Positions 3,185-17,110 of a stretch of DNA of 64,000 nucleotides are shown here, in pieces. This DNA is from Vicinamibacterales bacterium (lineage in GTDB: Bacteria > Acidobacteriota > Vicinamibacteria > Vicinamibacterales > Vicinamibacteraceae). The translations under genes and the position numbers were made by a program. The stretch covers positions 80,201 to 144,200 of the forward strand of contig CAWJOG010000001.1 of assembly GCA_963844435.1 (NCBI GenBank), read 5' to 3'. The first letter of the stretch is position 1. Each line of letters starts with the position of its first letter. The notes below the pieces were generated by a model that saw only the letters and a program-made list of their open reading frames with translations, made no database searches and was not told where the DNA came from.

Positions 3185-3296
3185 TACCTCATCTACTCTG
3201 CGCCCGAACAGACAACCTCAGCGATCGGGTCGTTGCACCGGCGTGCGCTCCGCGCGCGGTGTGTCGATCGCGGAGAAGTGTGTGGGGAGGACTACT

Positions 3297-6200
3297 GTGT
3301 CAAAGACGCGTAACGCATTGAGGCTGCTGGCGAGCACCCTCGTCGTCCTGCTGGCGGCGCTGGTGGCGCCCGCGCAGGCGCAACAGTTCAACGGCACGCT
3401 GCGCGGAGTCGTTCAGGATTCCACCGGCGGCGTCCTGCCGGGTGCCGAGGTCTCGGTCATCGAGGTCAGCACGAACGATACGCGCAGCCTGACGTCCGAC
3501 GCACGGGGCAGCTGGGTGTTGCCGAACCTCAAGCCGGGCACCTACCGGATCGTCGTGTCGCTCGACGGCTTCAAGACGGCCGCGATGGACAACGTGAAGC
3601 TGGACGTCCAGGGCGTCCGCGACGTAGAAGTCTCGCTCGAGACCGGCGCCGTGGCCGAAACCGTGACCGTCAGCGGCCAGGCCGCCGCCGTGGAAGTCAC
3701 GAGCTCGACGATGAGCCAGACCATCGAGAACAAGCGGATGGTCGATCTGCCGCTGAACGGCCGCAACCCGTTCTCGCTGGCCACCCTCGCCCCCGGCGTC
3801 GCCCCGACGTCGACCGGCGGCGGCTCGTCGCCGTCGATCAGCGGCGGGCGCAACGCGACGTCCGAGGTCGCCATCGACGGCGTCTCCAACGTCAACGCCG
3901 AGAACAACGTCTCGATCCTCGACCTGAACTACACGCCGTCGGTCGACGCCGTGCAGGAGTTCAGCGTCCAGACCAACGCCGTCAGCGCCGAGTTCGGCCG
4001 CCTCGGCGGCGGCGTCATCAACCTGATCACGAAGAGCGGCAGCAACGCGCTGCGCGCCACCGCCTGGGAGTTCGCGCGCAACGCCAAGATGGACGCGACC
4101 AACTTCTTCACCAACCGCGGCGGCGGCAAGAAGGGCGACTTCAAGCGCAACCAGTTCGGCGGCAACGTCGGCGGCCCGATCAACAAGGACAAGACGTTCT
4201 TCTTCGCGAACTACGAAGGGCTCCGCCAGGAGAACGCCAACGTCCAGACCTTCACGGTGCCGCTGCCGGAGTGGCGCAACGGCGACTTCTCGAACTTCCG
4301 CAACGGCGTCGGGTCAGCTGATCACCATCTACGATCCGCTGACGACGCGCGCAGATCCGGCCAACCCGGGCCAGTTCATCCGCGATCCGTTCCCGGGCAA
4401 CGTCATCCCGCAGAGCCGCATCAGCCCGATGGCGCGCGCGATGATGTCCTACTGGCCGCTGCCGAACACGACGCCGACCAACCAGTTCACCCAGACCAGC
4501 AACTTCTCGGCCTCGGGCGTGTCGGTCAGCAACGGCGACCGCATCGACTCGCGCGTCGACCACGTCTTCAACGACCGCTGGCGCACGTTCGTCCGCTACT
4601 CGTACTCGGACGAGGAAGGCCTGCCCTTCAACAGCTTCGGCAACGCGGCGTCGTCGGCCGGCGGCGACGGTCCGACCTTCACCCGGACGCACAGCCTCTC
4701 GGTCGATCAGAACTACACGCTCGGGCCGACCTGGGTGCTGAACCTCCGCTACGGCCTCAACCGCCGCTTCGTCGATCGCCTGCCGCTGTCGGCCGGCTTC
4801 GACCTGGCCGACCTGAACTTCCCGACGCAACGTCATCGACACGGCCGACGCCTTCGAGTTCCCGCGCGTGAACGTGCAGAACTTCCAGTCGCTCGGCCAG
4901 AACACCTTCACCGACCTGGTGATTGCGCCGACGACGCACAGCTTCAACGCGAACGCGACCAAGGTGTGGGGCACGCACACGCTGAAGATGGGCGCCGACT
5001 ACCGGAAGTTCTTGCTGAACTTCACGCAGCTGTTCTTCCCGTCTGGCCAGATCAGCTTCAACAACGCGCAGTGGACACAGCGCAACCCGAACGTGACCAA
5101 CGGCACGCAGGGCGCGGCGCTGGCTTCGATGCTGCTCGGCATCCCGAGCGGCTTCAATCTGAGCCACAACCCGGACCCGGCGTCGGCCAGTTCCTATTTT
5201 GGCGGCTACCTGCAGGACGACTGGAAGGTCGCCCGCAACTTCACCATCAACCTCGGCCTGCGCTACGACTTCGACGTGCCGCGCACCGAGCGCTTCAACC
5301 GCCTCGCCTCCTTCGACACCGAAGCCACGTCCCCGCTCGCCGGCGTGGTCCCGGCCAACCCCTACTTCGATCCGTCGCAACTGAAGGGCGCGGTGGTGTT
5401 CACCGACGAGAACAACCGCCAGCAGGTCGACACCGACTACAACAACGTCAGCCCGCGTATCGGCTTCGCGTGGAACTTCGCGGAGAAGACGGTGGTGCGT
5501 GGCGGCTATGGCATCTTCTACATGCCGTCGCACGTGCAGGCGGCCGGCCACTCCGGCTCGTCGGGGATGATCGGCTACAACACGCAGAGCGACATGATCG
5601 TCAGCGTGGACAGCAACCGCACGCCGCTGCGCTACATCGACAACCCATTCCCGGACGGCTTCAACCTGCCGCCGGGCAACACGCTGGGCGCGTCGACGAA
5701 CCTCGGGCTGGGAATGGGCGGCGGCACCGGCGGCTACTTCACGACCAACCAGGTGCCGCACATGCAGCAGTGGAACCTGAACGTCCAGCGCGAGCTGCCG
5801 GGGAACATCATCACCGAGCTGGCCTACATCGGCAGCAAGGGGACCGACCTGCTGATCGGCGAGAGCGGACTCGCAGTTCGGCCAGGTCGATCCGTCGTAC
5901 CTGGGCCTCCAGAACGCGCTGCTCGATCAGGTGGACAACCCGTTCTTCGGGATCATCACCAACCCGTCGTCGCCGCTGCGGTTCCAGACCGTCTCGCGCA
6001 ACCGCCTGCTGCGGCCGTACCCGCAGTACGACGGCGTGTCGGCGTTCCGCGTGCCGGGCGCGAAGTCGATCTACCACGGCTTCACGGCGCGCGCCGACAA
6101 GCGCTTCGCGAAAGGCCTCAGCCTGCTCGCGTCCTACACGCTCGGCGAGCTGAAGGACGACGCCTCGACCACGGTCGGCTTCCTCGGCCAGGCGGGCACG

Positions 6201-6807
6201 CAGCAGAACGCCTACGATCGCGTCGGCGACTACTCGATCTCGTCGAACGACGTGAAGTACCGCTTCGTCAGCGCCTTCGTCTACGACCTGCCGTTCGGCC
6301 AGGGCCAGCACTGGGGCGGCAACAGCCGGCGGCGTGGTCGGGGCGCTGATCAGCGGCTGGCAGATCAACGGCATCCTGACCTTCCAGAGCGGCTACCCGC
6401 TGATCTTCTCGCAGGGCGCGAACAACGTGAACCTGTTCAACCCGACGCAGCGCCCGAACTGGACCGGGGCCGACGCCACCCTGAACGATCAGTCGCGCGG
6501 CGACGCCATCCTGCGCTGGTTCGACACCAGCCAGTTCAGCGTGGCGCCGGCGTTCCAGTTCGGCAACACGCCGCGCGTCACGGAGTTCCGCTCGGACGGC
6601 GTGAAGAACCTCGATTTCTCATTGATCAAGAACAACCGCTTCAACGACGGCAAGTGGAACGCGCAGATCCGCATCGAAGCGTTCAACGTGCTGAACCGGA
6701 CGCAATTCAACGCGCCGAACACGCAGGTCGGAAGCGCGGCTTTCGGTACGGTCAGCGGCGCCGGCGGCGCGCGCCAGGTCCAGATCGGCCTGAAAATGAT
6801 GTTTTGA
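3297..6807 (+). CDS. TonB-dependent outer-membrane receptor with carboxypeptidase-regulatory-like N-terminal domain (~1170 aa); at least 4 frameshifts
   Basis: GTG start at 3297 is preceded by GGGGAGGA. Signal peptide LLASTLVVLLAALVAPAQAQ. CarboxypepD_reg-like block (GAEVSVIEVSTNDTRSLTSDARGSWVLPNLKPGTYRIVVSLDGF). Plug region (DLPLNGRNPFSLATLAPGV). The barrel continues across ORFs 4429-6153, 4868-6349, 5931-6851 and 6334-6807 and ends ...QIGLKMMF (terminal Phe). Confidence 0.8.
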
Positions 6808-6814
6808 TCGGTGG

Positions 6815-6876
6815 CGGCCGGCCCTCAGGGCCGGCCGCGGCAGCCCTGTAGCGTGCGGCTGCTGTTCGCCGCACGC
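6815..6876. terminator. two GC-rich hairpins between the convergent TonB-receptor and RibD_C genes: cggccggccc-tca-gggccggccg (6815-6837) and gcgtgcggc-N8-gccgcacgc (6851-6876)
   Basis: Inverted repeats read directly from the sequence, immediately after the TGA at 6805-6807. Confidence 0.5.
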
Positions 6877-6898
6877 GGGCTGCAAACAAGCCCAATGG

Positions 6899-7447
<549 letters not shown>

Positions 7448-7547
7448 GGCGCAACAGTACCGCCGGTGAGGTGGACGAGCAAGGCGCCTCGTCGGATCGG
7501 CGCAGGCCCACCGGCCCGGCTTGGCGGTCGAGCCCGCTCGCGTCGAA

Positions 7548-7883
7548 CTAGTCGGGGATCGTCAGGTCGATGCGACCGTCGGCCACCGCCAGCGTGACAC
7601 CCGCGCTGGCGGCCGCCTCCTGGAGCGCGGCGTCGAGGATTGCCACCGGGTCGGGACCGTGCGCCAGGCGGCGCAGCAGGCCTTCCCCGCTCTTCCCCTT
7701 CACGGTCAGCACGATCTTGAGGCCGCGCCGCTTGCACTTCACGGCGATGCCGTCCTCGCGCTTCACGTTCATCGGCTTGATGTAGGCATCGACGTAGTGG
7801 ACGCCGACGCCCGACTTGTCTTCGGTCTTTGCCGGCAGCTTGTCGATCGCGCCGGCGTTCACGGGACACAGGGTAAAGGTCAT
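7548..7883 (-). CDS. small hypothetical protein (111 aa), last gene of the corrinoid methyltransferase operon
   Basis: Intact ORF starting 12 nt downstream of the HMT stop on the same strand. No recognisable family. MTFTLCPVNAGAIDKLPAKTEDKSGVGVHYVDAYIKPMNVKREDGIAVKCK... Confidence 0.5.
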   Translation of the reverse strand: MTFTLCPVNAGAIDKLPAKTEDKSGVGVHYVDAYIKPMNVKREDGIAVKCKRRGLKIVLTVKGKSGEGLLRRLAHGPDPVAILDAALQEAAASAGVTLAVADGRIDLTIPD

Positions 7884-7895
7884 ATTCGGCGGGAC

Positions 7896-8822
7896 TCAGG
7901 CGCGGGTGCCGGCGGCGACGGTGGCGAGATGGGCGTCGAGCAGCCGCCGGAACTCACGGATGTGATCGGGGGTGCTGCCGCAGCAGGCGCCGACGATGTT
8001 GGCGCCGGCCTCGACCAGCGGCACCACGCCGCAGCCCATGTGGTCGGGGGTCTCGTCGTAGATCACCTTCATGTTCACCAGCTTGGGCACGCCGGCGTTC
8101 GGCTGCACCATGATCGGCAGGCTGGTGACGGCGCGATAGCGCAGCACCGCGTCGCGGGCCCGCTCCATCTCCATGCCCGTCCCGCAGTTGAGGGCGACGA
8201 CGTGGGCGCCGTGCTCCTCCATGAACGCGGCGGCGCGCTCCGGATCGATGCCCATCATGGTGCGGAAGGTCGAGCCGTCGAGCGTCACGTCGTAGGCCAT
8301 CGAGCCGATGATGCACGGCGCGCCGGCGGCCTTGGCCGCCTCGATCGCGAGCTGCAGCTCCTCGAGCGAGGTCATCGTCTCGATGATGATGGCGTCGGCG
8401 CCGCCGTCGACGAGGGCCTGGGCCTGCTCGTTGAAGGCGTCGCGCACCTGCGCCTCGGTGAAATCGCCGTAGGGCTCCATCAGGCCGCCGAACGGGCCGA
8501 CGTCGCCGAGCACGTAGCCGGGCTTGCCGCCGAACGCCTCGCGCGCGATCGCGACCGCGGCCTTGTTCACCTCGGCGACGTCGCCGGCGTGGCCGTGGCG
8601 GTTCAGCATGATCCGCGACCCGCCGAAGGTGTTGGTGATGATGCAGTCCGAGCCCGCCTCGGCGTAGCGGCGCTGAATGCCCAGCACCTTGTCCGGGTGC
8701 GTCAGGTTCCAGGCCTCGCCGCAGCCGCCCTGTTCGAGGCCGGCCAGCATGAGCTGCGTTCCCATGGCGCCGTCGCCGATCAGCGGGCGGGTCCTGACGA
8801 TGTCGAGTAGCGGGGTCTTCAT
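7896..8822 (-). CDS. stand-alone homocysteine S-methyltransferase domain protein (Pfam S-methyl_trans / MetH N-terminal module-like), no pterin-binding domain
   Basis: MKTPLLDIVRTRPLIGDGAMGTQL...GSDCIITNTFGGSR...VLGDVGPFG...ALNCGTG...GACCGSTPDHI are hallmark motifs of the Zn/homocysteine-binding HMT fold (BHMT/MmuM/MetH N-term). Its ATG overlaps the stop of the upstream gene (ATGA at 8819-8822). Confidence 0.8.
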   Translation of the reverse strand: MKTPLLDIVRTRPLIGDGAMGTQLMLAGLEQGGCGEAWNLTHPDKVLGIQRRYAEAGSDCIITNTFGGSRIMLNRHGHAGDVAEVNKAAVAIAREAFGGKPGYVLGDVGPFGGLMEPYGDFTEAQVRDAFNEQAQALVDGGADAIIIETMTSLEELQLAIEAAKAAGAPCIIGSMAYDVTLDGSTFRTMMGIDPERAAAFMEEHGAHVVALNCGTGMEMERARDAVLRYRAVTSLPIMVQPNAGVPKLVNMKVIYDETPDHMGCGVVPLVEAGANIVGACCGSTPDHIREFRRLLDAHLATVAAGTRA

Positions 8823-10097
8823 GCCTCTCCGGTCGTGCGCTCGGCGAGCGCGTAGTGAATCGTCTCGAGCACCAGGCCCCACTTGTGAACCCGGCTCGCG
8901 TCGTCGCAATAGCAGCCGGCCGACGACACCGGCCGTGTCCAGCCGATGACCGCACGCAGCGGCTCGCCGGCGAGCGGCGTGTCCCGGCCGACGGCGGCAA
9001 TCAGGTCGTCGCCGACGCTGATGTAGCCGCACATGTGGGTGTGCCCGGTGTCGTCGGCCGCGGGCCGGCAGCGCTGGGCGCGGATGGGGTAGCCGTCGCC
9101 GCGCGGGCCGAGCTGCACGTGATAGTCGAAGCGCAGCGGGCGGCCCATGTTCGTGCAGGTCGTACCTTCGTAGCGGAACAGCGCGTCGATCGATCCGTCG
9201 TCGCGACGCGTCAGCGTCAGGCGTTCGGCCGCCCAGCGGCGCAGCGCCTTCGCGTTGACGGTGTAGGCGGCCGACGGGTCCAGGACCGGCGGCGGGATCG
9301 CGTCGTCGATGGCCGCGTCGACGGCTGTGTCGTCGGGGGTCGGCTCGTCGAACGCGCGCGCCGTCGATCGCAGCGCACCGCGGCGATACGGCGCCCGCCG
9401 GGTACTGGCACGGGGCGAACGAGCAGCGCTCGCACGGCACCAGGTCGCGCAAGTGCGTCAGCCGCTCGACGTGGCGGGTCAGGCCGAACACCGCGATCAG
9501 CGATTTCTTCGGCCGCAGGGCGCCCGAGTCGAGCACCTCGAGCGGGCCCGGCAGCGGCGCCGCGGATGCCGTGAGCAGCGCGTGCAGCGGGGCCTGCTCG
9601 GCGATGTCCCACTCCGGATATCCCGGGCTGTCGTGCGGCAGCACCGCCAGGCCCTGCGCCTCGGCCCAGCCGCACAGGCGGGCGCCGGCTTGCGTCACCA
9701 GGTGCTCGACGACGGCGGATCCGTAGACCTCGAGGAAGAAGTACTCGTCGGGCTTCTCGTCCTGCCACCGCCGCGCCGCTTCCGCTTCCAGCTCGGGCCC
9801 GGCCCCCACCGCGACCAGCACCGCGCGGTGCGCCCCGGCGTCGACCAGCGATTGCCGCAGGCGGGCGCTGGCGAAACGCCGCCCGTCGAGGCGCACGCTG
9901 TCGGCGTCGAGCCTCAGCGTCGATGCCTCGCGGGCGAAGATCCACGGCCGGCCGTGCTCGGCGTACCAGGCCTCGGCCTCGGCCGCCAGCGCCGCGGCCC
10001 GGCCTTCGAGGCGGTGCCCGCGCGGATAGCCGAGCAGGCGCGCGTACTCGGCCGGATCGACCTGGACCGCCGGCCGGACGTCCTCGAGCGCGATCAT
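8819..10097 (-). CDS. MetH activation-domain (Met_synt_B12, pfam02965-like) protein with a ~200-aa Cys-rich C-terminal extension; internal frameshift near 9150-9250
   Basis: MIALEDVRPAVQVDPAEYARLLGYPRG...DEYFFLEVYGSAVVEH...LPHDSPGYPEWDIAEQAPLHALL matches the SAM-binding reactivation domain of MetH and the Thermotoga-type stand-alone homologs (PGYxxWP/DQ motif). C-terminal Cys clusters are CERCSFAPCQYP and HTHMCGY...CYC. Start ATG 10097 overlaps the RACo stop (ATGA). Confidence 0.6.
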
Positions 10098-11810
10098 CGC
10101 GCGGCCTCCGGCTCGGCGACGCCAGCATCCGCCGTCGCCGACGACGCCGGGAGCACCGGCGCGAACTGGCAGCCGTCGACGAAGAAATCGAAGAAGCGCC
10201 GGATGCGTCTCGAGGCGGCAGTGCTCGACCCGCCGCACCGTCTCCTCCAGCTCGGCGCGCTTCGCCCGCGACAGCAGCGCCAGCGTCGCGCCTTCGATCG
10301 CGGCATTGCCGACCTGGACGATCCGATCGGCCGGAATCATCGGCACCAGGCCGATGCGCTGCGCCGATTCGAGGCGCAGGTGCCGGCCGAACCCGCCGGC
10401 GAGATAGAACACGTCGATGGCGTCCACGTCGACGCCGAACGTGTCGAGCACCACCTTGAGTCCGGCGACGTTGGCGCCCTTGGCCTGGGCCAGCTCGTTG
10501 ACGTCGCTCTCGAGCAGGCCGACGCCGGTCGCCGCATCGAGGGTGACCTTCGACTCGCCGTCCTCGAAGCGGCCCATGGCGTTCATCCGCCCCGTGCGCA
10601 GCAGCTCGCTCAGGGTGTCGACGAGGCCCGATCCGCACAGCCCCTCGGCCGGGCCGTCGCCGATCACGCCGAGCGCGAACGTGCCGTCCGCGCGCGCCTC
10701 GACCGTCGCGACGGCGCCGTCGAGCGCGGGCATCCCACAGGAAATCGCGCCGCCCTCGAAGGCCGGACCGGCCGGGCACGACGCCGCCAGGACGCGGCCG
10801 CGATGGCCGAGCAGCAGCTCGGTGTTGGTGCCGATGTCCATCACCACCGTGAGGCGATCCGCGTGCGCCAGATCGACCGCGAGCAGGCAGGCCGCGGCAT
10901 CCGCGCCGACATGACCGCTGATCACCGGCAGCCCGTAGACGCGCGCCCTTGGGTGGATCGGCAGCAGCGACCGGCGGCCGCTGGCCACCAGGCTGGTACT
11001 GGCGCGCTTGCCTTCCGCCATCTCGATCTCGGTGATCGACTGGTACGGGCTCTGGCCGATCGAGTGCACGTTCTGCCGGAAGAACAGGTCGCGCATGGTC
11101 GCGTTGCCGACGACGATCAGCTCGTAGATCGTCTGCGGATCGACCGGGAACTCCTCGATGGCGTGGCTGATGTAGCCGGCCAGCGTCCGCATCAGCAGGA
11201 AGCCGCCCTGCTCGGTGTCGTACTGGATCCGCGCCATCACGTCGGAACCGCCGAAGCGCTGCGGGTTCTCGAACGACGCGTCGGCGACGAGCGCGCCGGT
11301 CTCGAGGTCGAACAGGCGCAGCACGACGGTCGTCGTGCCGAGATCCATCGCCAGGCCGTGGATCGGACCGGTCGACCGCGCCACTTCCTCGCCGTCGACG
11401 AGGATGCGATCGCCGTCGCGTGTCACCGCCGGATCGAGCACCAGGCCGGTGTGTCGCGCCGCGATGTCGGCGCAGCCGGTGAGGACGCGCAGCTGGCCGC
11501 GCCGCATCGTGTGGCAGCGGACGTGGGCGTCGCCGTCGATCGTGGTCCGGCACGACAGGCGGAAGTGGCCGCGCAGGTGCTGCTCCTCCGGTGTCGGCGG
11601 GGACAGCGCGTCCTGGCCCTCGGTGACCTCGACCAGGCACTCCTTGCACTTGCCCTGCTTCTTGCAGGACGTCGGCACGCGCACGCCGAGCCGCTCGGCG
11701 TGCTCGAAGAGCGTGAGCCCCGGCACCGCCGCGGTCGACTGGCCGTTCAGGGTGAGCGTCGCGGGCACTCTGTCTGGAACCGTTCCTTTGCCTGTTGGCG
11801 GCGTCCGCAC
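10094..11810 (-). CDS. corrinoid reductive activase RACo-like (N-terminal 2Fe-2S plant-type ferredoxin plus ASKHA/DUF4445 ATPase); C-terminal frameshift near 10200-10300
   Basis: N-terminal TLTLNGQSTAAVPGLTLFEHAERLGVRVPTSCKKQGKCKECLVEV (2Fe-2S ferredoxin Cys pattern). ASKHA motifs GLAMDLGTTTVV, VMDIGTNTEL and GSGLVD. The C-terminus (FFDFFVDGCQFAPVLP...) lies in the adjacent frame ending with TGA at 10094. Confidence 0.8.
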
Positions 11811-11829
11811 GGCGGCGGCTCTCTCAACA

Positions 11830-12086
11830 CTAAAAGCCGGCCTTCGCCTCGAGCTCGGCGCGCACGGCCTCGGCCACGTCCTGGGCCGACCCGTCGCGCT
11901 CCTCTTCCTCGCTCCAGCGCCACTGCGCCAGGTAGTCGTCCGAGCCGCCCAGGCCGCGCTCCGCCGCCAGGCGGTCGATGCGCTCCTGGAAGCGGTCGGG
12001 CATCAGCAGCGTCACGTCGTCGGCGTCGTCCTCGGCCTTGATCTGCGAGGGGACTTCCTGCCAGTAGAGGACCTTGTAGCTGGCCA
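11830..12086 (-). CDS. small acidic protein of unknown function (85 aa), translationally coupled between corrinoid protein and RACo
   Basis: MASYKVLYWQEVPSQIKAEDDADDVTLLMPDRFQERIDRLAAERGLGGSDDYLAQWRWSEEEERDG... Its ATG overlaps the upstream stop (TGATG at 12084-12088). Confidence 0.45.
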
Positions 12087-12761
12087 TCAGGCAGGAGCTC
12101 CCGTCTCTCTCGGGGCGGCTTCCGCTTCCTGCGACAGGCGGAGGAAGAGGTCGACCGCCGCCGACGCGTTCTGGCCGTAGCCGTCGGCACCGATCTCGTC
12201 GGCGAACATCTGGCTGATCGGCGCGCCGCCGACCGCCATCTTGATATGGCCGCGGCCGGCCGATTCGAAGCCGTCGATGACCTGCTTCATATAGGTCATC
12301 GTCGTCGTCAGCAGCGCGCTCATGCCGATGATCGTCGGCTGGCACTTGTCCGCGGCGGCCATGAATTTCTCGACGCTCTGATCGACGCCGATGTCGACGA
12401 CCTCGAAGCCGGCGCCCTCGGCCATCATGCAGACCAGGTTCTTGCCGATGTCGTGCAGGTCGCCGCGCACGGTGCCCATGAGCAGCGTGCCGACGCGCTT
12501 CGTCGTGCTGTCCTTGGCCGAGAGCAGCGGCTTGAGGACGCTCATGCCCGCCTTCATCGCGCGCGCCGCGATCAGCACTTCCGGCACATAGAGCACGTTG
12601 TGCTTGAAGTCCTCGCCGACCACGCTCATCCCCGCGATGAGGCCGTCGGTCAGGATCTCCTGCACCGGGCGCCCCGCGGCGAGGGCATCCCTGGTCATCT
12701 GCTCGACCTCGTTGGCCTTGCCCTCGTAGAGGTACTGGTTCATCAGGGCGTAGTCGATCAT
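12086..12761 (-). CDS. cobalamin-binding corrinoid protein (B12-binding domain with N-terminal cap helix; MtaC/MetH-B12-domain-like)
   Basis: Intact 224-aa ORF. DxHxxG B12-ligand motif (GTVRGDLHDIGKNLV), then GxxV...GMSAL...T Rossmann-like B12-binding signature and the N-terminal helical cap. Confidence 0.85.
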
Positions 12762-13828
12762 CGCCCGCCCGCCATCGCGACCTTGCGCTTGCCGTTGAAC
12801 TCCGCGAGCGCCTCGAGCATCGCGCGGATGTTGCGCCCCGGCATGCCCGGGCTCGTGCCGCCGCCGACCGAGAGGATGATCCCTTCGCCCTCGGAGCCTT
12901 CGAGCACGTCCAGCGTCGCTTCCTTCACGTCGTCCTCGTCGCCGCGCACCGCGATCTCGAGCGGGTTGACGTTGCCCATCAGCACCATGCGATCGCCGAC
13001 GCGCCGCTTCACCTCGCGGATGTCCTTCTGCTTGCCCCAGTTGAGGCAGTTGAAGCCGGCGTCGGGCAGGTGATCGAGGCAGGCGTCGACCTCGGCGTCG
13101 TTGTGATAGAGCTTCACCCAGTCGTTCGGGAAGGCATCACAGATGCGCTTCAGGTAGGGGTGCGCGAACTCCTTGTAGTGCTCCTCGTTGATGAAGCCGA
13201 CGATGTCGTCGAGGATGAAGATGCCCTCGACGGTGTCGCCCATCGCCGCGTGCTGCGCCTTGAGCCAGTCGATGATGACCCGCGTGCACAGGTCGATCAG
13301 GCGATGCGCGCCTTTCGGGTCCTCGACCAGGTCGATCATGAAGTGCGTGGTGCCGCGGACGAAGCCGGCCGTGCAGAGCGGGCCGCGCGCGGTGACCATC
13401 GGCAGGATGTAGCCGGCGTCGAGGATGCGCTGCTTGTGCATCCGGATGCGGTGCAGCGTCATCGCCGCGAAGGCGTCCGCATCGACTTCGTACTCAGGGA
13501 AGTTGTCGATGTCCTCGAGCCGGTAGAGCGTGTGGTACTCGCTCGGCGTGTTGTCCTGCCAGAACTTGATCTTCGAGCCGAGGATCGACGGCTCGGCGGC
13601 CATGCCGTATTCCATCCACCAGCCGGGGACGAAGATGACCTCCGGATACTCCTCGAAGATCTTCAGGTTGGCCTGGAACCACACCTCGGGGTCGAGGTAG
13701 TAGTCCATGTGCTTGATGCCGAGATACCCGGGAATCCACGGGCTGTCGACGATCAGCGCCATCGGGATCTCGTCCAGCTTCTCGCGGCGCACGGCGCGCT
13801 TGAAGGTGTCCCATTGAGCAGGCAACAT
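12758..13828 (-). CDS. uroporphyrinogen decarboxylase (URO-D) superfamily methyltransferase, MtaA/CmuA-like (corrinoid-dependent methyl transfer)
   Basis: Intact ~356-aa ORF. URO-D fold length and pattern (IPMALIVDSPWIPGY...ILPMVTARGPLCTAGF...GIFILDDIVGFI...). AAGGA Shine-Dalgarno before ATG 13828. First gene of the operon. Confidence 0.75.
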   Translation of the reverse strand: MLPAQWDTFKRAVRREKLDEIPMALIVDSPWIPGYLGIKHMDYYLDPEVWFQANLKIFEEYPEVIFVPGWWMEYGMAAEPSILGSKIKFWQDNTPSEYHTLYRLEDIDNFPEYEVDADAFAAMTLHRIRMHKQRILDAGYILPMVTARGPLCTAGFVRGTTHFMIDLVEDPKGAHRLIDLCTRVIIDWLKAQHAAMGDTVEGIFILDDIVGFINEEHYKEFAHPYLKRICDAFPNDWVKLYHNDAEVDACLDHLPDAGFNCLNWGKQKDIREVKRRVGDRMVLMGNVNPLEIAVRGDEDDVKEATLDVLEGSEGEGIILSVGGGTSPGMPGRNIRAMLEALAEFNGKRKVAMAGGR

Positions 13829-13842
13829 TCGATAAGGTCCTT

Positions 13843-13880
13843 TTCTGACCGGACGGGCCAGTTCTGACCGGAGGGGCCAG
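13843..13880. promoter_or_regulatory. tandem 19-bp direct repeat TTCTGACCGGA(C/G)GGGCCAG x2 immediately 5' of the operon's first gene; nearby imperfect palindrome with two CACGTG cores (13925-13950)
   Basis: Read directly: ttctgaccggacgggccag ttctgaccggaggggccag. The downstream stretch gctcacgtgtcaacgtgtgagc lies in the 420-bp divergent intergenic region. Confidence 0.3.
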
Positions 13881-14251
13881 CCCTGGTCCACGACCCGAAC
13901 AAAACAGGAAGTACATCACCGTGAACGCTCACGTGTCAACGTGTGAGCGCGTCATTCCTCAGGGTGCAACCGCAGGCAGCAGCGCGAGTTGCCGTGTCCG
14001 TGCGTTTACCAGGGGCCGTTCCGGCCGCCGTGGGGCGACTTGCCGGTGGGGCGAACGCCCGCCGGCGACGGGAACGACGGGCCGGCGGACGGGCCGAATC
14101 GCCGGAAGAGGCGGCGACCGGACGACCCTGCTAGACTTCCCTCAGCGGCCCCCGCCGCGTCAGCAGCGCGGCCCCCGACGCGCGACTTCCCCGCAGCCTC
14201 CCCCGGGGCAGCGAGTGGCTTCCACAGTCGCGATTTCCGGAGGTACTCGAC

Positions 14252-14694
14252 ATGCCGCGCTCCATTTGGGCTGCCAGCCTGGCCGCCCTGACCCTGACCA
14301 TCGGTTCGTCGCTCGCCGTCGTCGCTTGCGGAGGCAGCGATTCGCCGAACGAGCCGACGCCCGCGCCGACACCTGCTCCCAACCCGCCGCCGCCCCGCGC
14401 CTCCTCCCGCGGGCTCGACCACGATCACGATCACCTCAGCCGGCGTGTCGCCGAAGGACATCGTCGTCTCGCGCGGCGCGCGCGTCACCTTCGTCAACAA
14501 CGACGGCGTCGGCCACGACATGAACTCGGATCCCCATCCGGCGCACACGAGCTGCACGGACATGAACGTGGGCAACGTCGCCCCCGGACAGAGCCAGCAG
14601 ACCGACGTCCTGAACATCGCGCGGACGGTGCGGCTACCACGATCACAACCAGCCGTCGAACGGGAACCTGCAGGGCACGATCACCATCCAGTAG
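14252..14694 (+). CDS. cupredoxin-like (plastocyanin/azurin-type) lipoprotein; frameshifts
   Basis: Lipoprotein signal with lipobox (LTLTIGSSLAVVACGGS). The cupredoxin region is TFVNNDGVGHDMNSDPHPAHTSCTDMNVGNVAPGQSQ. The C-terminal ...YHDHNQPSNGNLQGTITIQ* is in a shifted frame and carries the His ligands. Confidence 0.55.
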
Positions 14695-14704
14695 TCGATC
14701 TCGC

Positions 14705-14730
14705 GGGCGAGCGCGGCCCCGCGCTCGCCC
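14705..14730. terminator. GC-rich hairpin gggcgagcgcgg-ccc-cgcgctcgccc after the cupredoxin gene
   Basis: Perfect inverted repeat located 10 nt after the TAG at 14692-14694. Confidence 0.5.
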
Positions 14731-14801
14731 CCCTCGCAGCGCACGGAGTCTCAGCCCCGGCGTTCTTCCGGAGGCCGCGAGTTCGTTGTGCTGGATCACC
14801 G

Positions 14802-15422
14802 ATGCCGTCCAAGCTGCTGATCGCCATCCCCAACTACGGCAACAACGCTCCCGGCCTGTTCCTCGACTCGATGGTGCGGCTGATGACGCACCTGGCCCGC
14901 AAGTTCGGACCAGGCGAGATCGACTACATGCGCGTCGGGCTGATGTACATCGACATCGCCCGCAACATGATCTGGGACGAGGCGCGCAAGCGGCAGACCG
15001 AGGCGCTGCTCTGCCTGGACGACGACATGACGTTCACGCCGCAGACGTTCGAGGCGGTGTGGAACACGCCGGGCGACGTCGTGTCGGGCCTCTACTTCCA
15101 GCGCCGCCAGCCGCCGACGGCGCCGTGCATGTACCAGCGCATGCCGAACGGCCACCACTCGGCGGTGATGGCCTATCCGAAGGACGCGGTGATCGACGTG
15201 GACGCGGTCGGCTTCGGCTTCGTCCTGATCCGCAAGCCGGTGATCGACGCGCTCGAGCACCCGTTCACGACCAAGACCTCGAAGGGCGAGGACATCGCCT
15301 TCTGCGAGAACGCCAAGGCGGCCGGCTTCAGCGTGAAGGTCAACACGGCGGCCAAGGTCGGCCACATCCTGACCGTCCCGCTGATCATCGAAGAGAGCAA
15401 CGCGGGCCCGGAATTCGGGTGA
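14802..15422 (+). CDS. glycosyltransferase family 2-like protein (small, ~206 aa)
   Basis: LLIAIPNYGNNAPGLFLDSMVRL...EALLCLDDDMTFTPQTFEAVWN...GEDIAFCENAKAAGFSV matches the GT-A fold DxD region and C-terminal acceptor loop. Confidence 0.6.
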   Translation: MPSKLLIAIPNYGNNAPGLFLDSMVRLMTHLARKFGPGEIDYMRVGLMYIDIARNMIWDEARKRQTEALLCLDDDMTFTPQTFEAVWNTPGDVVSGLYFQRRQPPTAPCMYQRMPNGHHSAVMAYPKDAVIDVDAVGFGFVLIRKPVIDALEHPFTTKTSKGEDIAFCENAKAAGFSVKVNTAAKVGHILTVPLIIEESNAGPEFG

Positions 15423-15494
15423 TCGCCGGCCCGCGGCGGCGGCCGCCTGCGCGGATGAAACACCCGGCCATGGAACGGAGTAGCATCTGGCACC

Positions 15495-16656
15495 ATGGCT
15501 GACATCCACGATCCGAACTATTCCCGGCGGCGGTTCCTGCAAGCGGCCGGTGGCTCGCTCGCGGCCGCGCCGCTGCTCGGCGCCGTCTCGCCCGCCGCGG
15601 CCCAGGTCCCCGACATCCGTCTGCCCGAGGTCCCCGGCCCGAAGGTGGGATGGGCGCTCGTCGGGATCGGCGGGCTGACGGCGAACCAGATTCTCCCGGC
15701 CTTCCCGAAGTGCCAGAAGTCGAAGGTCGTGTCCTTCGTCAGCGGACGCCCGGAGAAGGCGGCGCGGTTCGCGCAGGTCCACGGCGTCGATCCGAAGAAC
15801 ATCTACAACTACGAGAACTTCGACAAGATCGCCGACAACCCGGACATCCAGGCGCGTCTACATCGTGCTGCCGAACAGCATGCACGCCGAGTACACGATC
15901 CGGGCGCTCAAGGCCGGCAAGCACGTGCTGTGCGAGAAGCCGATGGCCAACACCGCGGCCGACTGCGAAAAGATGATCGCGGCGGCCAAGGCGGCGAACA
16001 AGAAGCTGATGGTGGCGTACCGCTGCCGCTACGAGCCGAACAACCAGCTCGCCATCAAGATGGCGCAGGACAGCAGCGAGGCGGGGATGGGCCCGACGCG
16101 CGTCATCCTGGCCGAGATGGGCTTCAACATCGGCAACCCGGGCCAGTGGCGCCTGAAGAAGGCGATGGCCGGCGGCGGCTCGATGATGGACATCGGCATC
16201 TACGCCCTGAACGCCGCGCGCTACCTCACCGGCGAGGAGCCGAACGAGGTCTACGCGATGATCTCCTCGACGCCGAACGACGTGCGCTTCGCCGAGGTCG
16301 AGGAGAACATCACCTTCCAGCTCCGCTTCCCGAGCGGCATCCTCGCCAACTGCGTGTCGAGCTACGGCACGAACTTCAACAAGTTCCGCGTCTGCAAGCC
16401 GCGCGGCGCCTTCGAGCTCGATCCGGCGACGCCCTACACGGGCCTGCGGATGCGCGTGTTCCGCGGCGGCGCCATCGAGGATCGCTCGCTGCCGCAGCGC
16501 GACCACTTCCAGCTCGAGATGGACCACTTCTCGGAGTGCATCCAGACCGAACAAGGAGCCGCTCACGCCAGGCGAGGACGGCCTCAAGGACATGCGGATC
16601 GTCGAAGCGATCTACGAGTCCGGCCGCACCGGCAAGCCGATCAAGCTGGCCTGATC
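15495..16656 (+). CDS. Gfo/Idh/MocA family NAD(P)-dependent oxidoreductase with twin-arginine (Tat) signal; 2 frameshifts
   Basis: Tat motif SRRRFLQAAGGSLAAAPLLGAVSPAAAQ. Rossmann N-terminus (WALVGIGGLTANQILPAF), then the block in ORF 15865-17079 (HVLCEKPMANTAADCEKMIAAAKAANKKLMVAYRCRYEP...). The C-terminus ...RIVEAIYESGRTGKPIKLA* is in a third frame. Confidence 0.75.
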
Positions 16657-16670
16657 GATCCGCGGGCGTG

Positions 16671-17110
16671 TCACGCGGTCGGGTCCGGTTCGCCGGACCC
16701 GGCCTCGACCGCCCACGACGCCAGCATCAGCGGATACATCCCCACCAGCGTCGCGCCGAGCGCGATCGCCGGCGCCGATGGCGCCGCCCCACCAGGCCGC
16801 CAGCGGCAGCACCACCACAGCGACACCACGAGACCGGCGGCATTGAGCGCGTCGGGGATCCACGCGGCCGGCGCCGGCCGTTCCGCGGCCACGCGGCGCG
16901 CGGACGGCGGCGCTGAACCCGGCCGACGGCATGGCGTCGCGGAAGCGCGCGGCGAGCGCGGTGTCGAGCGCCGTCTCCTGCTCGAGCAGCTCGGCGCACG
17001 ACGGGCAAGAGGCGACGTGCGCGTCCAGCGACGACGTCATCCTGCGGCGACGCCTCGCCGTCCAGCCGCCGTTCGATGAGGACCGCGGCGCGGTCGCAGC
17101 CGATCATCGG
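16671..17110 (-). CDS. putative anti-sigma factor (zinc-finger N-terminus, single TM segment), frameshifted
   Basis: MIGCDRAAVLIERRLDGE... / MTSSLDAHVASCPSCAELLEQETALDTALAARF (HxxxCxxC-type anti-sigma motif). C-terminal hydrophobic segment LVVSLWWCCRW. Directly downstream of an ECF sigma gene. Confidence 0.45.

Follow-up and report, generated by a model that had tools for sequence, protein, structure and literature searches.

The DNA analysed here, referred to throughout as the window, is a 64,000-nt stretch from a Vicinamibacterales bacterium (Vicinamibacteraceae; GCA_963844435.1, contig CAWJOG010000001.1, forward strand positions 80,201-144,200). Its minus strand carries, from 13828 to 7548, seven co-directional genes (g1-g7), identified from open reading frames (ORFs) and from Pfam and NCBIfam matches, that encode the parts of a corrinoid methyltransferase system ending in a homocysteine methyltransferase (HMT). 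The genes, including those for the proposed first and second methyltransferases (MT1 and MT2), are as follows.

12758..13828, minus strand: g1, URO-D-superfamily protein of 356 aa, the proposed MT1 (Pfam URO-D, 3e-40)
12087..12761, minus strand: g2, corrinoid carrier protein of 224 aa, with a cap and a Rossmann B12-binding domain (Pfam B12-binding_2 and B12-binding)
11830..12087, minus strand: g3, acidic protein of 85 aa, PF13769 'Virulence_fact' (Pfam, 3.6e-16)
~11768..10094, minus strand: g4, RACo-type activase (Pfam Fer2, Raco_middle and RACo_C_ter in the frameshift-corrected sequence)
8819..10097, minus strand: g5, two-domain protein of 425 aa, with a predicted MetH activation fold and a cysteine-rich domain
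7896..8822, minus strand: g6, MetH-type HMT of 308 aa, the proposed MT2 (Pfam S-methyl_trans PF02574, 2.3e-62)
7548..7883, minus strand: g7, conserved protein of 111 aa, found with the module in related loci

Overlaps occur at four of the six junctions, with ATGA at 12761-12758, 10097-10094 and 8822-8819 and TGATG at 12089-12085. An earlier reading of this sequence (the original prediction) had reported the gene order and the overlaps at 12086, 10094-10097 and 8819-8822, all of which are borne out; the fourth overlap, at 12761-12758, had gone unlisted. The 356-residue length of its homologues places the start of g1 at the ATG at 13828, rather than at 13880 or 13891, and the GTG at 11768 is most likely the start of g4.

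Two of the genes are broken as written, which the original prediction overlooked. One extra nucleotide near 10199-10202 puts the last ~35 codons of g4 (…LETHP followed by RFFDFFVDGCQF…) in another frame, and one extra nucleotide in the C run at 9402-9400 does the same to the second half of g5 (…CSFAPCQY followed by RRAPYRR…). Taken at face value, these single-nucleotide insertions could mean that both frameshifts are real and the operon is decaying or non-functional in its source organism. However, both sites lie in G/C runs, the frames are otherwise open, and their products share 81-89% amino-acid identity with those of L007, a locus from a Vicinamibacteraceae metagenome-assembled genome (MAG) that is 89% identical at the nucleotide level and has neither extra base. 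A second locus, L090, which is 94% identical and has the same flanking genes, encodes RACo (547 aa) and g5 (420 aa) without interruption, and public data include an unbroken g5 that is 97% identical. At least two unrelated window genes are likewise broken up, a TonB-dependent receptor of the CarboxypepD_reg type (3243-6851, plus strand) over several frames, which is one 1167-aa gene in L090, and a Gfo/Idh/MocA oxidoreductase (15495-17079, plus strand) over two or more frames. The window seems rich in single-base indels, as in an unpolished long-read assembly. Because L007 and L090 lack the insertions and other window genes are frame-split too, assembly errors are the likeliest explanation of the g4 and g5 frameshifts, and we consider decay very improbable. 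The protein analyses of g4 and g5 therefore used frameshift-corrected sequences.

The encoded proteins

The product of g1 is not HemE. It scores 57 bits against the hemE model TIGR01464 (NCBIfam), far below the cut-off of 303, and alignment to solved HemE proteins places IVDSPWIPGYLG at the position of the N-terminal RQAGRYLPEY-type substrate motif, which is not kept; the original prediction had likewise separated g1 from true uroporphyrinogen decarboxylases. Its best curated model is NCBIfam MtaA/CmuA, at 104 bits against a cut-off of 235, a shortfall which indicates that g1 belongs to a separate branch of the UroD superfamily; similarity to the chloromethane MT1 CdmB, the one solved member of the O-demethylase branch, is distant at 29 bits. 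When g1 is aligned to MtaA (4ay7), the zinc ligands His-Ile-Cys…Cys fall opposite His242-Asn-Asp244…Gly323, with the Cys of 'pgCg' opposite G323, and H242, D244 and G323 are invariant in 19 g1 homologues from several phyla. The S-methyltransferases of the UroD superfamily have a His-Cys-Cys site, and in the O-methyltransferases the Cys ligands give way to carboxylates or non-coordinating residues (Kountz and Balskus, PMC10418091); in some members of the superfamily zinc is wholly absent (CdmB paper, PMC13222342). The g1 site is thus of the O-type, which sets g1 apart from the thiol-type enzymes MtaA, MtbA, MtsA and Mlp1-3. This disagrees with the earlier description of g1 as a 'thiol-type', Zn-dependent URO-D/MtaA-like MT1, and it disfavours the methylthiol donors dimethyl sulfide (DMS) and methanethiol; an O-methyl donor fits better.

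At the other end of the proposed pathway, the closest solved relative of g6 is Thermotoga maritima MetH(1-566), at 156 bits, with other MetH proteins at 84-136 bits and BHMT and S-methylmethionine (SMM)-type HMTs at ~50 bits. The zinc-binding Cys triad is kept, as had been expected: in the T. maritima alignment the Cys of ALNCG and the two of GACCG are matched to the Cys residues that MetH carries in INCS and GCCG. Judged by these matches g6 is a MetH-type module, of the kind that takes its methyl group from methylcobalamin. It also scores 221 bits against PRK07534, a model naming a Bhmt/MtgE-like group, which is below the 338-bit cut-off. An exact look-up of the window's g6 in public assemblies gave no record.

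No PF00809 pterin-binding domain was found by Pfam in any corrected ORF of the operon, and two tblastn searches of the window, one with a related pterin-binding protein that stands alone and the other with residues ~350-650 of E. coli MetH, likewise found none. That such a domain is hidden by frameshifts is ruled out by the tblastn searches, which covered all frames of the 64 kb. The only parts of the window that match E. coli MetH are g2 (MetH residues 667-864, at 34% identity) and g6 (residues 12-326). For the operon and the window, the claim that a pterin-binding domain is missing even after frameshift correction therefore stands.

The corrinoid protein g2 consists of a B12 cap (PF02607) followed by a B12-binding domain (PF02310) in which DLHDIG represents the DxHxxG motif. 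NCBIfam places it among methyltransferase-cognate corrinoid proteins (184 bits; MtgC-like), and it is nearer to those represented by MtgC, MtbC and MtaC than to the B12 domain of MetH itself. In the corrected g4, Pfam finds an N-terminal Fe-S ferredoxin domain (Fer2), Raco_middle and the ASKHA domain RACo_C_ter, and NCBIfam gives an AcsV-like match of 280 bits; from its domains g4 is a RACo/RamA-type ATP-dependent corrinoid reductive activase.

The remaining two proteins are less familiar. Neither g5 nor g7 matches any Pfam family even at E up to 10, or any NCBIfam model, and hidden Markov model (HMM) profiles of both, searched against all Protein Data Bank (PDB) sequences, gave chance matches only. 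An AlphaFold2 model of g5 built from 29 homologues (pLDDT 80.6) has two domains, of which residues 1-213 adopt the fold of the S-adenosylmethionine (AdoMet, SAM)-binding MetH activation domain. By eye, HxSPGYP…(D)SGxLxPxKS in g5 parallels RPAPGYP…TESFAMWPGAS in E. coli MetH; hhalign gave no significant match between the g5 profile and the activation domain of E. coli MetH, and since the sequence methods give no significant match the assignment rests on fold. An invariant CxxCx4C-x-YRR linker leads to a cysteine-rich domain of ~160 aa (residues 264-420) with invariant C310, C339, C352, C391, C393 and H400, which has no convincing fold match and is possibly a metal or Fe-S site. The original prediction's 'MetH activation domain protein' is thus upheld at the level of fold, while the second domain was overlooked and half of the protein is new. 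Homologues of g7 share ~65% identity, an invariant Cys6 and the motifs KRRGLKI and GEGLxRR; its single-sequence AlphaFold2 model (pLDDT 46) is unusable.

Distribution, variants and gene context

A scan of one genome per GTDB species with g1 found relatives in at least 576 genomes, from which the best 80 loci were fetched; with two additional Phycisphaerales loci, 82 were compared. The best 80 come nearly all from soil or peat MAGs and belong to the Acidobacteriota (Terriglobia, Bryobacterales, Vicinamibacteria), Planctomycetota (Phycisphaerae, Pirellulales) and Chloroflexota (Limnocylindrales). Homologues of g1 are ~80% identical across phyla, with large metagenome clusters. The gene is present in all loci compared, and only the corrinoid protein exceeds it in conservation, RACo and g5 being much less conserved. 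Accompanying it among the 82 loci are g2 (80 loci), g3 (77), RACo (77), g5 (71), HMT (68) and g7 (66), most of the missing genes being explained by contig ends. Because the gene set recurs in nearly all of the 80 loci with a long enough contig, and in almost all of them in the same order, a chance arrangement is far from plausible. The operon is real, with all seven genes confirmed, and the module is apparently undescribed and widespread in soil bacteria.

The departures from the common arrangement are informative. In L089 the set is rearranged to RACo, g5, g7, URO-D, corrinoid protein, PF13769 and HMT. L088 (10001-11973), and likewise L087, has a two-gene form in which URO-D is followed directly by HMT and the neighbourhood lacks the corrinoid protein, RACo, g5 and g7. 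In two Phycisphaerales loci (L005 and L006) an Ala/Pro-rich linker joins the PF13769 protein to the C-terminal end of the corrinoid protein (L005 9827-10807), a fusion from which g3 probably binds the corrinoid protein. Together these variants argue for a joint function of the genes and for a direct partnership of g1 with g6.

Six of the 80 loci, in the Planctomycetota and Acidobacteriota (L005 at 4665-8539, L038, L063, L065, L072 and L084), carry a further trio beside the cluster: an amidohydrolase (PF01979), a stand-alone pterin-binding methyltransferase whose best model is methyltetrahydrofolate:corrinoid methyltransferase, and methylenetetrahydrofolate reductase (MTHFR) fused to a Cys-rich DUF5981 domain, which we take to be MetV-like. 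By analogy with MtgD in Ruegeria (PMC12478193), the corrinoid protein encoded at these six loci can probably pass methyl groups to and from the folate pool. The family as a whole is therefore not strictly independent of folate, and the 'folate-independent' label of the original prediction does not apply universally.

To look for clues to the methyl donor, the flanking ORFs of the best 80 loci were clustered and the recurrent ones annotated. The commonest neighbour is a glycoside hydrolase family 67 (GH67) alpha-glucuronidase (Pfam 67N/M/C, 4e-142), found within 10 kb in 24 of the 80 loci. It lies on the same strand as the core genes in 20 of these 24 and less than 250 nt from g1 or g7 in nine, and in eight further GH67 loci the sole intervening gene encodes a KduD/UxuB-like short-chain dehydrogenase/reductase (SDR). 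Given the few GH67 genes expected per 6-9 Mb genome, about 1% of loci should have one within 10 kb at random; this expectation is an estimate rather than a computed value, and against it the observed 30% is a large excess. Genes for a CE15 glucuronoyl esterase occur in six of the 80 loci. In a Tepidisphaeraceae MAG (L072) this gene (GCE_fung, 5e-31; 14899-16400, minus strand) sits between g5 and g6 on the opposite strand, and in L079 the genes immediately after the g1 homologue encode a major facilitator superfamily (MFS) sugar transporter, a GH43 beta-xylosidase and a GH67, CE15 lying further downstream. Genes resembling those for xylose isomerase and arabinofuranosidase are other repeated neighbours, and the L088 pair is divergent from an adjoining TonB-dependent receptor, GH3 and ROK regulator. 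The original prediction had overlooked this linkage to glucuronoxylan genes and the donor to which it points.

The sequences flanking the operon in the window offer less. One feature lies ~100 nt upstream of g1:

13926..13949, no strand assigned: inverted repeat CGCTCAC(N10)GTGAGCG, 7-bp arms around a TTGACA hexamer

From its sequence this may, weakly, be read as a possible operator or promoter region; its central stretch ...CTCACACGTTGACA... is common to L007 and the window, and its right arm is not. A scan of 7300-14200 for consensus promoters and terminators found nothing, and Rfam, at gathering thresholds, detected no riboswitch for cobalamin or SAM, nor one of any other kind, either in the window or at seven related loci. 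Six other loci (L009, L011, L017, L036, L059 and L060) have an AT-rich motif like TTGTTGTACC(N4-6)AACTAT in the last ~100 nt before g1 (before 10001), partly palindromic in L059 as TTGTGGTACAACAA. This motif may be a GntR-type operator, the window having CGCTCAC(N10)GTGAGCG there instead. On the operon strand, 100 nt downstream of g7, is a RibD_C (dihydrofolate-reductase-like) gene (6899-7447, minus strand), which is probably not a module member since L090 has none at that position. Just upstream of the operon, on the opposite strand, is a 325-aa ORF with no Pfam match (14445-15419, plus strand).

A candidate route from methoxyl groups to methionine

The most economical reading of the operon, as in the original prediction, is transfer from an MT1 through a corrinoid protein to a homocysteine-type MT2. 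We consider it on balance probable that the genes form a self-contained corrinoid module moving a methyl group from an O-methyl (plant methoxy) donor to homocysteine to give methionine. In such a scheme g1 would take the methyl group from the O-methylated substrate and load the Co(I) form of g2, and g6, by homology to the homocysteine domain of MetH, would pass it from methyl-Co(III) to zinc-activated homocysteine, yielding methionine and Co(I). Co(II) formed by oxidation would be re-reduced by the g4 RACo with ATP. From its fold, g5 may bind AdoMet and perhaps capture the reduced cobalt in the methyl-Co(III) form, as happens when MetH is reactivated, and its cysteine-rich parts may hold a metal or Fe-S centre; g3 (PF13769), to judge by the fusion, would ride on or bind the corrinoid protein. 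In a minority of lineages the neighbouring pterin-binding methyltransferase and MTHFR could provide a second outlet to the folate pool. The architecture given by the original prediction is thus largely right, although its 'thiol-type' g1 was wrong and its folate independence too absolute.

As to the donor, GH67 enzymes free (4-O-methyl)glucuronic acid from xylo-oligosaccharides, and the GH67, CE15 and GH43 neighbours lead us to propose 4-O-methylglucuronate. At least one bacterial GH67 depends on the 4-O-methyl group to discriminate between substrates (PMC8056927). From gene context our favoured physiological donor, tentative though quite possible, is 4-O-methyl-D-glucuronate, or an aldouronate that bears it, set free from glucuronoxylan by GH67. 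The more specific proposal, that g1 is the first corrinoid-dependent demethylase of an aliphatic sugar methyl ether, delivering the 4-O-methyl group to homocysteine without folate, is possible and a little more doubtful. The literature searched held nothing on bacterial removal of the methyl ether from the 4-O-methylglucuronic acid side chains of xylan. One Phycisphaerales MAG has a gene for a cytochrome P450 ~4 kb upstream of the cluster (L005 3053-4651, plus strand); P450s are known oxidative demethylases of methylated sugars, and its presence may be coincidence or an alternative route.

Several considerations weigh against this proposal. Every step of the mechanism is inferred from sequence, fold and context, and g5 has no significant sequence similarity to the activation domain PF02965. 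To our knowledge there is no characterised precedent for the attack of a corrinoid Co(I) on an aliphatic methyl ether; known UroD-superfamily O-demethylases act on aryl methyl ethers, in which phenolate is a far better leaving group. The activation of methanol by MtaB does indicate that Lewis-acid-assisted C-O cleavage is feasible, but MtaB has a different fold. The GH67 linkage comes mostly from the Bryobacterales and is to that extent non-independent, although single cases in the Acidobacteriaceae, Limnocylindrales and Tepidisphaeraceae, in several arrangements, lend it some independent support. No GH67 gene was found near the operon in the window, in its closest relatives L007 and L090, or in most Acidobacteriaceae loci. 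Finally, by a rough estimate, growth on glucuronoxylan would free several-fold more methyl groups than methionine synthesis needs, so that a second sink would be required, either a distantly encoded pterin module or methionine turnover.

One alternative is that the operon is a housekeeping, folate-dependent split MetH like those of Phaeobacter and Ruegeria, with its CH3-H4folate (methyltetrahydrofolate) module elsewhere in the genome and the URO-D protein an optional donor module like MtgB. In its favour, trans-encoded pterin modules and RamA-like activases are genetically established (PMC5764234, PMC12478193), the pterin-binding methyltransferase and MTHFR/DUF5981 adjoin the cluster in six loci from two phyla, and PRK07534, on which g6 scores 221 bits, names the predicted S. 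meliloti Bhmt, a homologue of MtgE according to PMC12478193. We nonetheless think it unlikely: no pterin gene was found at the other 74 of the 80 loci or in the window, a comparison of loci and not of whole genomes; the URO-D gene is in all loci at ~80% identity and still paired with HMT in the two-gene form; and DUF1638, required in Phaeobacter, was not found in the operon. The same architecture could alternatively draw, like the classical three-component O-demethylases, on a methoxylated aromatic from lignin such as vanillate, syringate or ferulate, homocysteine replacing tetrahydrofolate (H4folate) as acceptor. The chemistry would then be well precedented, aryl methyl ethers being the substrates of all the characterised O-demethylating UroD MT1s, OdmB, VdmB, MtvB and MtoB (PMC13222342). 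The hosts live in soil and peat, and because CE15 esterases work where lignin is joined to carbohydrate, aromatics are freed in the same niche. However, the recurrent neighbours are on the sugar side (GH67, GH43, MFS, xylose-isomerase-like and KduD/UxuB-like SDR genes) rather than ring-cleavage genes, and g1 reaches just 29 bits to CdmB; an aromatic donor is in our view quite improbable.

The direction of flow is not fixed by anything in the sequence, and the original prediction had raised the option that the HMT takes a methyl group from methionine, SMM or another S-methyl compound, for the URO-D protein to pass to an oxygen acceptor or onward. Although HMT-family enzymes do handle sulfonium donors, g6 matches the MetH homocysteine domain three times as strongly as it does BHMT or SMM-type HMTs (156 against ~50 bits), the homocysteine half-reaction of MetH runs strongly to methionine, and degradative glycoside hydrolase neighbours supply O-methyl sugars and do not need them made. 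Reverse flow consequently strikes us as scarcely credible.

Glucuronoxylan is among the most abundant biopolymers, and if O-methyl sugar demethylation by this module is correct, abundant soil and peat Acidobacteriota and Planctomycetota would make methionine from hemicellulose methoxyl groups without folate, and the missing step of methylglucuronate catabolism would be explained. Alkyl methyl ethers would become a new substrate class for B12 methyl-transfer chemistry, plant cell-wall methoxyl carbon would feed the methionine/SAM pool of bacteria that dominate soil and peat, and xylan degraders would acquire a B12 demand. Should the donor be another compound, the module would still be a widespread (at least 576 species), conserved and unnamed methyl-corrinoid route to methionine, using a MetH-type domain without a pterin domain. 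Either way it contains three uncharacterised protein families, PF13769, the g5 family and g7.

Comparison with known systems

The original prediction regarded this gene combination as not described as a unit, and within the literature searched that holds: no description was found of the combination, of PF13769 or of corrinoid-dependent methylglucuronate demethylation. The modular concept itself is not new, since it is preceded by the split MetH of Phaeobacter inhibens (PMC5764234) and MtgBCDE of Ruegeria pomeroyi (PMC12478193), with which the operon shares a stand-alone homocysteine module, a corrinoid protein and a RamA/RACo activase. In Ruegeria the glycine betaine MT1, MtgB, loads the same corrinoid protein that feeds methionine synthesis (PMC12478193). 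The differences are that the MT1 of the operon is of the UroD superfamily and theirs is the MttB-superfamily MtgB; that they use a pterin module (MtgD) and DUF1638, neither of which Pfam finds in the operon; that the operon adds PF13769, the activation-like, cysteine-rich g5 and g7; and that all of its parts lie in one translationally coupled operon, in soil Acidobacteriota and Planctomycetota. With no MttB-type MtgB, MtgD pterin module or DUF1638 found in it, the operon is not a Ruegeria-type MtgBCDE system.

A UroD-superfamily MT1, an MtaC-like corrinoid protein and a RACo-type activase are also common to the operon and the O-demethylase and haloalkane methyltransferase systems of anaerobes (OdmABD, VdmB, MtvABC, MtoABCD and CdmBCA), whose MT1s, like g1, have a site without thiol-type Cys ligands. 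As in a three-component system, MT1, cognate corrinoid protein and activase are encoded together; the MT2, however, is neither a pterin-type nor an MtaA-type coenzyme M (CoM) enzyme. The O-demethylases and CdmBCA have a pterin-binding MT2 acting on H4folate or tetrahydromethanopterin (H4MPT), whereas that of the operon is a homocysteine methyltransferase (PF02574), and their hosts are strictly anaerobic acetogens and archaea rather than soil and peat lineages. The O-demethylases act on aryl methyl ethers, while the gene context of the operon points to a sugar methyl ether.

The type 1 mlp clusters resemble the operon in the UroD fold, in the clustering of corrinoid protein and activase and in having no H4folate methyltransferase in the cluster. 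Their S-/Se-methyltransferases have a His-Cys-Cys zinc site and two or three UroD genes, whereas the operon has one such gene in which the site is not kept; it also has an HMT module and hosts beyond the obligately anaerobic lineages. Its single UroD gene, its lack of the His-Cys-Cys site and its hosts rule out membership of type 1 mlp. Core-MetE (PMC7005905) similarly makes methionine from homocysteine with methyl-corrinoid, and not CH3-H4folate, as the immediate donor. It is MetE-like, whereas the operon combines a MetH-like homocysteine module (PF02574) with the gene for a dedicated donor-loading enzyme. MesA and MesB, reportedly described by Price et al. in 2021, are said to be folate-independent, MetE-like methionine synthases that use methyl-corrinoid.

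The problem of a methyl ether that blocks the catabolism of a polysaccharide sugar is shared with porphyran degradation, in which a P450 demethylates 6-O-methyl-D-galactose; that reaction needs O2 and releases formaldehyde, whereas the Co(I) route proposed here would keep the methyl group as methionine. The operon is, then, a previously undescribed form of the modular corrinoid methyltransferases and split MetH systems, and none of the known systems compared has its combination of genes.

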